Shown here one piece after another: positions 30,952 through 33,048 of a DNA stretch of 64,000 nt. Where the stretch lies: contig JACOZJ010000003.1 of assembly GCA_016181405.1 (NCBI GenBank), positions 42,749 through 106,748 of the forward strand, given 5' to 3'. The position numbers and the translations under genes are program-made. The DNA comes from Candidatus Wildermuthbacteria bacterium. Its GTDB lineage: Bacteria; Patescibacteriota; Minisyncoccia; Minisyncoccales; UBA10102. Numbering within the stretch: position 1 is the first letter of the stretch; every line of letters starts with the position of its first letter. The notes under the pieces are model-generated. The model worked only from the letters and a program-made list of their open reading frames with translations. It was not told where the DNA came from and did no database searches.

Positions 30952-33048
30952 ATGCTTTTTTCTTATAACTGGCTTCAAGAATACATAAAAGGCAAACTTC
31001 CCGCGCCCGCCAAACTGGCTGAACTTTTGAATATGCACGCGTTTGAGGTAGAGGCCCTTCGGCAGGCTCAGGGTAAAAAAGATTGGATTCTTGACATCGC
31101 TGTTTTGCCGAATCGGGCGCATGATTGTTTATCTCATACTGGTATGGCGCGCGAGATTGCGGCAATCTGCAAGCTAAAACTCCAGCTACCCAAAACGAAG
31201 CAAATAAAAGTTCAAAAAGGCGGGCTTGCCCCTTTGAAAGTGCGCGTTCAGTCCACAGAGCTCGTGCCGCGCTATACCGCTTTGCTCATAGAAGGAGTGA
31301 CAATAGGGAAATCACCTACATGGATAGCGGAACGCCTTGAGGCCGTGGGAGTAAACTCCATTAACAACGTAGTTGACCTTACAAATTTTATAATGCTGGA
31401 AACCGGCCAGCCCTTGCACGCGTTCGATTACGAGCAAATTGAAGGACCCTTCGACTCCGCTCAGGGTAAACTCATGAACGTGCGTGAAGCAAAAGAAGGC
31501 GAGAAGCTCGAAACGCTGGACAACCAAATATTTTCGCTTCCCAGAGGCGCGCTGGTTATCGAAGATGCCCCTTCGACAGGCTCAGGGCAAGCAAAACGAC
31601 TTATTGACCTTGCGGGAATCAAAGGTGGAAAAGTAAGCGCAATTTCTTCTGGCACGAAACATATTTTGCTGCAGGCAGCAAACTTTAATGCCGCCACTAT
31701 TTACCGAACAAAATCACAGCTTAAATATACGACGCAGGCAGCAGACATATACGCCCATCAAATTGATCCCAACCTTACCATGGAAGCGTTGGAACGCGCC
31801 TACGCGCTTTGCGCGGAACTTGGCATAGGAGGAAAAATAGTGCAAGTTGTCGATCTCTACCCCAAATCCGCCAGCTGGCGGACCAAACGCATTGCGCTCG
31901 ATATGCAGTTTGCCTCATCGATCCTCGGAATACCACTTTCGCAAAAAGAGGCAAAACGAATTTTAGAAAGTCTGGATTGTCAAGTTGCACTCACCAAGAA
32001 TCGCCTGCAAGTAACCTGCCCCACACGGCGTTTGGACCTTACCATGCAAGAAGATTTGGTAGAAGAGATCGGCAGAATCGTGGGATACGAAACTATCCCG
32101 GCCGCATTCCCCATAGCTCCAATAACCCCGCCATCGAAAAACATCGAATTACTCTGGCTGTCGAAAATCCGTAATGCCCTTAAGGGGCTTGGTTTCACCG
32201 AGGTATATAATCATTCTTTCATAGGGGATAAGGATTTTTCGCCATTCGCGTATTCGGCAACAGACAAAGAAAAGCTCGTCGAAGTTGAAAATCCTTTGAG
32301 TTCTGAATTTTCGCATCTGCGCGATTCTTTGTTGGAAAATCTGCTGAAAAACGTGCGCGACAACCAGAAGAAAACCGAAACCATACGCATCTTTGAAGTT
32401 GGAAATACATTTCGCCGACACAAAGGGAAATTCGTCGAATCCAATATGCTCAGCGCTCTTATATATAATGGGAGCTTCTACGAAGTAAAGGGCGTATGCG
32501 ATTTTATCTTGAACGGCCTCGGCATTTCGTCAGCATGGTACGACGAATATCAGGCCACAAGCGAAGAAAGTAGGGCTACGATATGGCATAAAGGAAAATC
32601 CGCAGAAATCAAGGTGGATGGCGAAAAAATCGGTTTTCTGGGAGAAATTTCAAGCCGCGTAAATACCGCTTTGAAACTTTCAAAGCCGGTTGGCGCTCTC
32701 CACTTAAATCTGCAAAAGCTTATTCTGCTAGCTTCAGAAGAAATATCATACCAGGTGCCGTCGCGGTTTCCTGCTTCCACGCGCGACATTGCAATTCTGG
32801 TGCCTTTCCAAACAAAAGTTGCTGAGGTAATGAACGCAATGAACGGCGCAGGCGGACCGTTGGTGCGCGATATTGATTTGTTTGATATGTACGAAGGTGA
32901 ACATCTCGCGCAAGGAAAGAAAAATCTCGCCTTCCATATCATATATGAATCTTCAGATAGAACGCTTACCAGCAAAGAAGTTGATACCCTGCATAATCAA
33001 ATTATCAAAGCAGTCGAAGAAAATCCCGAATGGGAAGTAAGAAAGTAA
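30952..33048 (+). CDS. pheT: Phenylalanyl-tRNA synthetase beta subunit (lacks the N-terminal B2 tRNA-binding OB-fold)
   Basis: [14 protein letters not shown]...[20 protein letters not shown]...; B3/4, B5 and FDX-ACB-like regions are present. Confidence 0.92.
31055..31077 (+). repeat. Short repeat family A, copy 1 (cccttcggcaggctcagggtaaa), in frame in pheT (LRQAQGK)
   Basis: Direct comparison with the copies at 31447 and 31569. Confidence 0.75.
31447..31470 (+). repeat. Short repeat family A, copy 2 (cccttcgactccgctcagggtaaa), in frame in pheT (PFDSAQGK)
   Basis: Direct sequence comparison. Confidence 0.75.
31569..31590 (+). repeat. Short repeat family A, copy 3 (cccttcgacaggctcagggcaa), in frame in pheT (PSTGSGQA)
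   Basis: Direct sequence comparison. Confidence 0.75.

Follow-up and report, generated by a model that had tools for sequence, protein, structure and literature searches.

Several described systems place short repeats in or next to bacterial genes. The Rickettsia palindromic elements (RPEs), repeats of ~150 bp, lie in frame inside many housekeeping genes (PMC10969869). Repetitive extragenic palindromic (REP) elements and their REPIN forms are mobilized by REP-associated tyrosine transposases (RAYTs; PMC3116915, PMC3479197, PMC3733652), and their GTAG and CGTC tags have been described (PMC3733652). MITEs, or miniature inverted-repeat transposable elements, such as Correia, ERIC, and the QMITEs of Coxiella, are small, non-autonomous repeats that can fuse in frame with host open reading frames (ORFs) (PMC10969869, PMC5896051). 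Finally, in SPDIR (short-patch double illegitimate recombination), ectopic single strands anneal at microhomologies within the replication fork and leave microindels of variable size (bioRxiv 10.1101/2023.11.22.568220). Here we describe a 19-25 nt stem-loop unit, termed family A, that is present three times in pheT, the gene for the phenylalanyl-tRNA synthetase (PheRS) beta subunit, of a Candidatus Wildermuthbacteria bacterium, a member of the candidate phyla radiation (CPR). The DNA analyzed (hereafter, the window) is a 64,000-nt stretch of contig JACOZJ010000003.1 (positions 42,749 to 106,748, forward strand; assembly GCA_016181405.1).

Like RPEs, the units are palindromic repeat DNA in frame in unrelated housekeeping genes of a small-genome bacterium at positions compatible with the protein fold; in both cases several families coexist and elements also occur between genes. 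RPEs, however, are ~100-150 bp long and restricted to Rickettsia, whereas the family-A unit is about six times smaller, occurs verbatim across phyla and in phages, has a CPR host here, is unrelated in sequence, and in several instances replaced native DNA. MITEs, which are 50-500 bp long, differ in their terminal inverted repeats, which belong to an identifiable insertion sequence (IS) family, and in their target-site duplications. The family-A unit shares none of these features; it contains no inverted repeats beyond a stem of 4-5 bp. In yeast mitochondria, GC clusters are GC-rich hairpin mini-elements of an AT-richer, compact genome that sometimes lie in frame in protein genes; they differ from the family-A unit in their organellar setting, their length (30-50 bp or longer), their restriction to particular lineages, and their unrelated sequences. 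Related palindromic mini-elements of organelles have also been described (PMC2670323, PMC6649704). In behavior, family A is RPE-like and, in anatomy, it resembles REP/REPIN elements; we file it under selfish palindromic DNA in coding sequence. As a whole, the account that we consider probable is that units of this stem-loop family were recently gained in pheT loops through short-patch integration and were kept there by selection.

Family-A units in pheT

The pheT gene (30952-33048, plus strand; 698 aa) was identified by its Pfam domains (B3_4, B5, tRNA_synthFbeta, and FDX-ACB; E-values down to 1e-47) and carries four mini-elements, three of which belong to family A. Its product is 100% identical to a protein of an NCBI Candidatus Wildermuthbacteria metagenome-assembled genome (MAG; 263,996-bp contig) and aligns with the beta subunit of Thermus thermophilus PheRS (1b70_B, E = 2.6e-83). 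A first-pass annotation, made from the sequence, had quoted three repeat strings in the same orientation, and these were recovered exactly, all on the plus strand, at 31055, 31447, and 31569. Copy 1 (CCCTTCGGCAGGCTCAGGGTAAA, 31055-31077) is read as (A)LRQAQGK, with ALRQAQGKK forming residues 35-43; copy 2 (CCCTTCGACTCCGCTCAGGGTAAA, 31447-31470) is read as PFDSAQGK (residues 166-173; PFDSAQG, 166-172); and copy 3 (CCCTTCGACAGGCTCAGGGCAAGC, 31569-31592) is read as (A)PSTGSGQA, with PSTGSGQA forming residues 207-214. The peptides that had been quoted (ALRQAQGKK, PFDSAQG, and PSTGSGQA) were thus correct as well. The repeat follows the pattern CCCTTCG-N4/5-GCTCAGGG, which occurs three times in pheT and is absent elsewhere in the window. 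When the whole window was searched with the looser pattern CCCTTCG-N2-6-GCTCAGGG, there were 3 matches vs 0.00 expected and 0 in 100 dinucleotide-preserving shuffles, and even the 8-mer GCTCAGGG by itself was confined to these three places. The units are richer in G+C (58-67%) than pheT (46.5%) or the window (48.0%); on their 5' side stand GAGG, AGGA, and ATGC, and on their 3' side TAAA or CAAGC. The unit begins at codon position 2 in copy 1, position 1 in copy 2, and position 3 in copy 3, so that all three frames are used. Since the same DNA is read in three frames as different peptides, the similarity resides at the level of DNA and not of protein. At 4.7 units per 100 kb of the window and 4.0 per 100 kb of the relatives' loci, the density of family A is low in this lineage. 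A near-match on the minus strand (TTCGGCAGGCTTAGG at 52671) was rejected as a further copy; it has no stem and fits chance, 1.15 one-mismatch matches being expected.

To place the units in the fold, an AlphaFold2 model was built on the PheT alignment (mean pLDDT, the predicted local confidence, 86.9). Every element joins two beta-strands in the model, as a loop or a turn. Site 1 (residues 35-43) is the turn between strands E32-38 and E45-50 (block pLDDT 88-89), site 2 (residues 166-172) lies in the loop between E156-159 and E173-179 (block pLDDT 73), and site 3 (residues 207-214) in the loop between E201-205 and E216-220 (block pLDDT 77-78). The alignment with 1b70_B shows a gap of 8 residues opposite site 2 and one of 4 residues opposite site 3. 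The model and the gaps in the T. thermophilus enzyme therefore agree with the placement in loops that had been proposed from the sequence.

We then compared filled and empty sites. A PheT protein search returned >6,000 homologs, of which 28 were aligned; the closest, P0002 and P0003, share 90% amino acid identity and 78-80% identity at synonymous third positions with the window, and were aligned as DNA also. At site 3, the relatives read GCC|AAA and the window carries a clean 24-nt insertion, CCTTCGACAGGCTCAGGGCAAGCA, exactly between the two codons. At site 2, the relatives read GGG CAC ACC ATG and the window GGA [CCC TTC GAC TCC GCT CAG GGT] AAA CTC ATG, a gain of 21 nt. Site 1 is different, for here the relatives have a native stretch of 21 nt (GGA ATG CAG AAA AAG GGG AGG) in place of the 27 nt of the window (GCC CTT CGG CAG GCT CAG GGT AAA AAA), a net gain of only 6 nt, or two codons. 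Therefore, of the three insertions claimed in the first-pass annotation, those at sites 2 and 3 stand, while the one at site 1 proved to be a replacement. Sites 2 and 3 are empty in 28 of 28 other aligned orthologs (P0002, P0003, and 26 more distant ones) and also in the solved T. thermophilus PheRS, and we conclude that both were gained in the lineage of the window.

Related residues do occur at site 1 of two orthologs, P0005 (68% amino acid identity to the window) and P0012. In P0005 they derive from a longer composite, CCCTTCGAC-TC-[TCCGCCGACCGGCGGA]-TC-GCTCAGGGTAAAAAA, which becomes exactly the core of window copy 2 when its inner 17 nt are removed, and in P0012 from a decayed copy. Since their respective sisters, P0010 and P0013, are empty at site 1, three independent events are indicated there, and these residues do not represent an ancestral sequence shared among distant PheT proteins. 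Nor is the motif peculiar to this pheT gene: in P0002 and P0003, the spacer between pheS and pheT, where the window has only TAG-T-ATG, contains a member whose stem is compensated (TCCT/AGGA; TCCTTCGACAAGCTCAGGA + TAAACA), and further members were found in a decayed composite within rpmF and across bacteria (both described below).

The junctions have several features in common. The replacements at site 1 in the three lineages were 21 to 27, 21 to 45, and 27 to 39 nt; a 16-nt palindrome, the fourth mini-element of pheT, stands for ~10 native nt between pre-existing CCAAA repeats; and the SASRR insert brought a net gain of 12 nt with loss of the native patch. The ends of the inserts vary (unit +T, +CAAGCA, or +TAAACA). 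No target duplication was seen in the filled/empty comparisons at five sites. Short matches are visible at junctions, e.g., GCC/CC on the left and AGGG..AAA on the right, in numbers too small for statistics. An apparent target-site duplication around the palindrome (CCAAA|…|CCAAA) was considered and rejected, since empty alleles already hold both CCA AAA codon pairs.

Two observations concern the host protein and the placement of its gene. PheT has no B2 (tRNA-binding, EMAP-like) domain: Pfam reported no tRNA_bind, and the alignment begins at residue 152 of the T. thermophilus beta subunit (of 785 aa). The same domain is missing from all aligned CPR PheT orthologs (646-720 aa). The cumulative GC skew of the window climbs steadily from 1 to ~40 kb and then drops (36000-44000), suggesting that the replication strand changes near 40 kb, at a terminus or an origin; the three units lie in forward orientation on the G-rich side of this turn.

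Stem-loop anatomy and spread of family A

The unit is GC-rich, with a conserved loop of 11-12 nt (TCGAC-N2-3-GCTC) enclosed by a T-A closing pair and 3-4 further pairs, which vary in sequence yet remain complementary. Across the fetched loci, conservation was confined to the unit and a short 3' tail (CGAACGG, TGAGCGG, CAAGC, CAGGC, or TAAAC). To assess covariation, we collected 264 non-identical copies of the loop TTCGAC(ARG|TYCG)CTCA, 80 of which had flanks other than the CCC/GGG of the bait. In these 80 copies, the three flanking positions paired in 92, 92, and 84%, compared to 56, 47, and 43% after shuffling of partners (sd 0.04-0.06), and at least 12 stem types were represented, including GTCC/GGAC, GGGC/GCCC, GTGC/GCAC, GTGG/CCAC, ATCC/GGAT, and TCGT/ACGA. 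Considering that pairing is well above that of shuffled partners, the unit is a stem-loop whose stem is free to change but complementary.

In GC-rich genomes the unit lies mostly between genes, often as inverted or nested doublets and also in tandem arrays. Loci L104 and L031 contain perfect GTAG-tagged palindromes (ACCGTAG-[unit]…[unit]-CTACGGT), and "left-left-right-right" nests look as though one unit had entered the loop of another. One nest, GTCAT(T/C)CTGAG-[CCCTTCGGCTTCGCTCAGGGTAAA]-CTCCGCGAAG(A/G)ATC, recurs in Terriglobia (L189, L203, L233, L246, and L248) and others; there, a forward unit sits in the loop of a reverse unit (stem ATTC/GAAT or ATCC/GGAT), with several such nests per genome. 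Rfam had no family for singlets, doublets, or nested forms, the doublets giving only sub-threshold matches to generic hairpins (miRNA precursors) and the window only tRNAs. An origin from a tRNA (T-arm or D-arm) or a hammerhead-like ribozyme was rejected by eye, as stems and core nucleotides are missing, and no tRNA or ribozyme model matched. A stable hairpin was likewise rejected as the explanation of family A, its folding energy being no more favorable than that of shuffles.

Scans of sequence collections, whose counts are lower bounds on an arbitrary taxonomic sample, showed family A to be widespread. At least 120 stretches of viral contigs in IMG/VR contained the 19-mer core of copy 3, and 37 viral stretches, from contigs of 31-69% G+C and with unrelated flanks, contained the 20-nt core of copy 2. 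The species-representative genome collection contained the TAAA-tailed form, CCCTTCG-N4-5-GCTCAGGGTAAA, in at least 120 stretches, compared to a chance expectation of ~9 in the whole 596 Gb (2 strands x 2 spacers x 596e9 / 4^19). The matches listed included 27 CPR loci (Saccharibacteria, Levy-, Adler-, Woese-, Roizman-, Ames-, Lipton-, Staskawicz-, Nealson-, Zambryski-, and Kaiserbacteria, and Paceibacterota), Bacteroidota (among them the isolates Flagellimonas myxillae, Maribacter algicola, Flavobacterium amnicola, and Chryseobacterium sp. JUb7), Cyanobacteria (Nostoc and the isolate Lyngbya CCAP 1446/10), and a Pelagerythrobacter isolate, as well as Chloroflexota, Acidobacteriota, Nitrospirota, Omnitrophota, Proteobacteria, Planctomycetota, Verrucomicrobia, and more. 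Family-A DNA was found in intergenic DNA and in unrelated genes of these other phyla. The exact sequences of the window copies also recurred: the 23-mer of copy 1 in a Dehalococcoidia MAG (L204), the 24-mer of copy 2 at 5 genome loci, including Zambryski-, Levy-, and Saccharibacteria, and the 24-mer of copy 3 at 4 viral loci. Since each window copy is a different variant that is found verbatim in unrelated organisms, the three represent separate events and not local duplicates. No description of the family-A DNA strings or peptides (LRSGQA, FDKLR, FAQGK, and others) was found, although subscription journals may hold one, and the literature on CPR, palindromic, and intragenic repeats yielded general work on MITEs, REPs, and RPEs only. 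Family A is thus a repeat family without a description in Rfam or the literature that we searched.

Members in CPR genomes favor coding sequence. We scored 127 genome matches, defining as deep those at least 40 codons into an ORF of at least 250 aa. By this measure, 11 of 28 CPR copies were deep intragenic compared to 10 of 99 elsewhere (odds ratio 5.8, Fisher P = 8e-4), and every deep CPR copy (11/11) was in the forward orientation. Ten host genes were named by Pfam, i.e., PurL, DnaN, two class-I aminoacyl-tRNA synthetases (aaRS), a Mur ligase, PPDK, SHMT, PolX, a double-zinc-ribbon protein, and TrmD. The unit lies at the junction of linker and AIRS domain in PurL, of domains 1 and 2 in DnaN, and of thumb and PHP domain in PolX; in the two aaRS it directly follows a conserved "WP" (AQWP and LGWP) in the tRNA-synt_1 domain. 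The aaRS copies, from two different CPR lineages, a Roizmanbacteria genome (L179, 3554-3576) and another Patescibacteria genome (L262), occupy the same place and are read in different frames, as PFATLRVN and PFDYAQGK. This makes a second site, after site 1 of pheT, with repeated hits.

Two intergenic settings were also observed. In two CPR genomes (L165, ~390-436; L239, ~1225-1272), the unit directly follows an apparent tRNA 3' end (…GGTTCAAATCCCGATGGGACCG|CCCTTCG…), and from these sequences tRNA ends may be a preferred intergenic site. In Coleofasciculaceae and other cyanobacteria (L202, L210, L223, L241, L258, and L267), the unit lies within arrays of the heptamers CCCCATT or CCCATTC, an arrangement that resembles the short tandemly repeated repetitive (STRR) sequences known from heterocystous cyanobacteria.

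Mechanism and alternative explanations

The units entered pheT of this Wildermuthbacteria lineage after its split from the ~90%-identical relatives. In the mechanism that we propose, integration would occur by short-patch replacement guided by microhomology, either through annealing of a single-stranded copy at the replication fork, as in SPDIR, or through template switching by the polymerase; it would not involve a transposase of the kind that leaves fixed ends and duplicated targets. Selection would then remove all but in-frame, stop-free integrations in loops. In this respect, the unit is free of stop codons in each frame of its forward strand. The encoded peptides would be passengers with no required function, and elsewhere a hairpin-recognizing system of the REP/RAYT type would probably keep the family uniform. 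Conceivably, though this is speculation, the structured GC-rich strand is a long-lived donor. What the data show are the recent gain at the DNA level, the placement in loops, the membership in a repeat family, the covarying stem, and the bias toward coding sequence in CPR genomes; the chemistry of integration, where the donor copies came from (own genome or foreign DNA), and the neutrality of the peptides are inferences. The absence of target duplication, the variable ends, and the lost native patches favor short-patch integration or template switching over classical transposition, as judged from fewer than ten junctions. Integration of single-stranded copies by short patches, followed by strong purifying selection, is accordingly put forward as a tentative scheme.

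SPDIR, as described in Acinetobacter baylyi, resembles the present case in that a native patch is replaced by ectopic DNA of variable size and boundaries without target duplication, and either intragenomic or foreign single strands can donate. It differs in being rare, unspecific in sequence, and laboratory-observed, whereas here one specific unit integrates repeatedly and is conserved far beyond the expectation for a passive process. The identity of the loop across phyla and the covariation of the stem go beyond patch integration and point to a system somewhere that recognizes the hairpin and both amplifies and homogenizes the family; given the GTAG-tagged doublets, a REP/RAYT-like one is the obvious candidate. 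The suggestion that the repeat is a miniature mobile or recombinogenic element tolerated in surface loops fares well as to recombination, tolerance in loops, and dispersal, the family being spread over hundreds of unrelated genomes, but the junctions resemble patch replacement more than the work of a transposase.

Several points weigh against the account as a whole. Patch recombination alone cannot explain either the identity of a 19-mer across phyla or the covarying stems, and the family-A unit by itself folds weakly (-2.4 to -4 kcal/mol, z ~0 vs shuffles), so that pairing must matter in another context, e.g., with a protein partner or in doublets. The three copies, all of one family, cluster within 535 nt, which has P ~2e-4 for three random points in 64 kb, and three copies of another family, B, likewise cluster in the pheT of P0003. 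Such family-specific clustering hints at local propagation and is a poor fit with three independent imports. The three events at site 1 share one codon and one frame, which suggests targeting or the conversion of an older remnant. Also, the uniformly forward orientation of the deep CPR copies is equally compatible with a strand-specific enzyme as with selection, and the sites that we describe as replacements could be insertions with a compensating deletion. Moreover, the evidence from the source genome itself comprises 64 kb of assembled sequence.

In an alternative that we regard as unlikely, the units are non-autonomous, REP/REPIN-like transposable elements moved in trans by a hairpin-recognizing RAYT or Y1 HUH enzyme of the IS200-IS605 type, encoded in this or a co-resident genome and inserting strand-specifically into single-stranded DNA at the fork. 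REP elements, too, are short (20-40 bp), GC-rich stem-loops that form inverted doublets; in the family-A unit, covariation of the 4-5 bp stem is strong and the isolated hairpin is thermodynamically weak. A conserved loop with a covarying stem, which in family A suggests recognition of the hairpin, is the signature of hairpin-processed elements; the GTAG-tagged inverted doublets of some GC-rich contigs match REP/REPIN anatomy, the outer tag included; and nested "left-left-right-right" arrays suggest that units entered the loop of a copy already in place. The shared orientation of intragenic copies (11/11 in CPR and 3/3 in the window) and the family-specific clusters inside one gene would likewise fit such an enzyme. 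REPs, however, are extragenic by definition, high in copy number, normally specific to a species, genus, or other lineage, and accompanied by a cognate single-copy RAYT gene, whereas the window copies are intragenic singletons, few in number (4.7 per 100 kb), and free of GTAG or CGTC tags, these being seen only in distant copies (L104 and L031), and the family-A unit occurs verbatim across phyla. The lack of target duplications and of constant ends, and the replacement of native sequence in several events, also argue against transposition. No transposase gene was seen in the window, though none was searched for.

The remaining alternatives fare less well. It is improbable that the units are functional, maintained in place by selection, and so adaptive in pheT, e.g., as RNA or DNA hairpins that tune the translation of pheST or the stability of its mRNA, as sites bound by a conserved host factor, or as signals of the uptake type. 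The conserved loop and covarying stem across phyla might be so read, as might the greater conservation of elements than of neighboring synonymous sites: between the window and P0005, 8 of 9 element third positions are identical compared to 0.49 gene-wide (P = 0.018), and between P0012 and P0013, 5 of 5 third positions of the palindrome compared to 0.57 (P = 0.06). These statistics are marginal, and they would fit recent independent origin equally well as constraint. Furthermore, presence differs between 90%-identical relatives, lineages carry different families at different sites, the hairpin is weak, and Rfam holds no match. Uptake sequences occur ~1 per kb in both orientations and are lineage-specific, whereas there are 3 copies in 64 kb, far too few for such a signal, all in one orientation and of a cross-phylum family. 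That the units are ancestral PheT loops deleted in relatives, or convergent peptide motifs selected at the protein level, seems scarcely credible. The site-1 peptide ALRQAQGK does resemble the native pattern x-h-R/K-K-x-G-K, and P0005 and P0012 have related residues there, but site 1 is empty in the sisters of both, and the 28 orthologs and the solved PheRS that are empty at sites 2 and 3 already contradict this explanation at those sites. The copies share DNA and not peptide, their frames being different, and identical DNA occurs between genes and in unrelated genes of other phyla. Equally hard to credit is an artifact of assembly or binning, by which GC-rich k-mers of abundant community members were spliced into a CPR contig. 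The source is a MAG and the unit is abundant in co-occurring GC-rich organisms; however, the inserts of 21-27 nt keep the frame within otherwise perfect pheT sequence of a 264 kb contig, these families recur in orthologous genes, at these or other sites, in independent assemblies from ENA, JGI, and NCBI, and cultured isolates carry the unit.

Confirmation of the account would mean that ~20 bp suffice for selfish or recombinogenic DNA to colonize essential genes, compared to ~150 bp in Rickettsia. A bolder and rather doubtful extension is that family A is the smallest known "infectious" DNA module, a ~20-nt stem-loop with a conserved loop that passes horizontally from phylum to phylum, probably via phages and free DNA, and is kept uniform by a putative machinery; on that reading, the unit would write itself into the coding sequence of essential genes and be a regular source of new loop and linker peptides in CPR, and family A, the 16-nt palindrome, and the CCTGCCTCG...CAAGGCGGG repeat of family B would form a class of ultra-small intragenic repeats new to Rfam and the searched literature. 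The puzzle is how a 19-mer with a covarying stem comes to be identical from Saccharibacteria to Nostoc, Flavobacterium, and phages. Since the carriers include cultivable isolates, the question of uniformity is accessible to experiment. The units also offer a concrete, testable origin for odd peptide strings (…AQGK…, …SGQA…, …LRVN…, and …SLSKG…) in metagenomic databases and CPR alignments, and would be of practical use in cleaning CPR alignments and structure predictions and in flagging spurious ORFs in GC-rich genomes.

Other mini-elements and features of the window

The fourth mini-element of pheT is a perfect 16-nt palindrome of a further family, hp (TCCGCCAGCTGGCGGA, 31867-31882), read as SASWR (residues 306-310) in the linker between the B3/4 and B5 domains (linker pLDDT 73). 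It has a folding energy of -6.5 kcal/mol (z = -3.7) and is common to P0002 and P0003, but missing in more distant orthologs, which have a 2-aa gap there. Family-hp palindromes are also present in pheS and pheT of P0012 and P0013, and a variant (TCCGCCAACTGGCGGA, 58106-58121) lies in the spacer between the tRNA genes at 57987-58069 and 58163-58235. On the minus strand at 50968-51006, the C-terminal extension of rpmF (ribosomal protein L32) contains a decayed composite, TCCTTCGAC-TG-[TCCGCCAGCTGGCGGA]-TG-CTCC, read as HPPAGG. It consists of the left half of a family-A unit and a nested family-hp palindrome (50980-50995, read as PPAGG), and shares the architecture of the intact composite at site 1 of P0005. 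The L32 protein itself (50744-51037) has 97 aa compared to 47-67 aa in solved ribosomes, the composite lying in a C-terminal extension of ~40 aa that is rich in lysine and glutamate.

Family B (CCTGCCTCG-N-CAAGGCGGG) is represented once in the window, by CCTGCCTCGATTCGGCAAGGCGGG (58790-58813, minus strand) inside def, the gene for peptide deformylase, where it is read as KPALPNRGRP. Solved deformylases align to the def product in two pieces, with ~19 extra residues at the position of the unit. The three copies in the pheT of P0003 (L002, 663-716 and 1795-1818) comprise two tandem forward copies (peptide PASPKTTSQGGPASQQGGS) and one reverse copy (QARLAESRQA). Since mini-elements are found in pheT, rpmF, def, and the pheST genes of relatives, their in-frame presence in essential genes is a general trait of this genome and clade and not of one gene.

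Between 52900 and 57200, ~4.3 kb of this gene-dense genome have no ORF longer than ~200 aa. The region has a raised G+C content of ~0.53 and contains many GC-rich islands and small hairpins, e.g., TCCGCCTCACCGGCGGA at 55666; it had no match in Rfam at E <= 0.1 and no notable repeats, and may be a gene in decay, a segment of foreign DNA, or a large non-coding RNA. The neighbors of pheT in the window are pheS and gyrB. The pheS ORF (29610-30950; 446 aa from the GTG at 29610) is ~100 aa longer than the pheS products of relatives (329-348 aa), its Pfam domains begin only at residue 125, and its 5' part overlaps another ORF (29104-29820), so that the true start of pheS is probably downstream of this GTG. 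Finally, a Logan assembly of SRR12113430 (L284) encodes a protein identical to that of window positions 2986-4119 within the same ribosomal-protein neighborhood; since this assembly is independent, a second data set also contains this organism or a strain very close to it.

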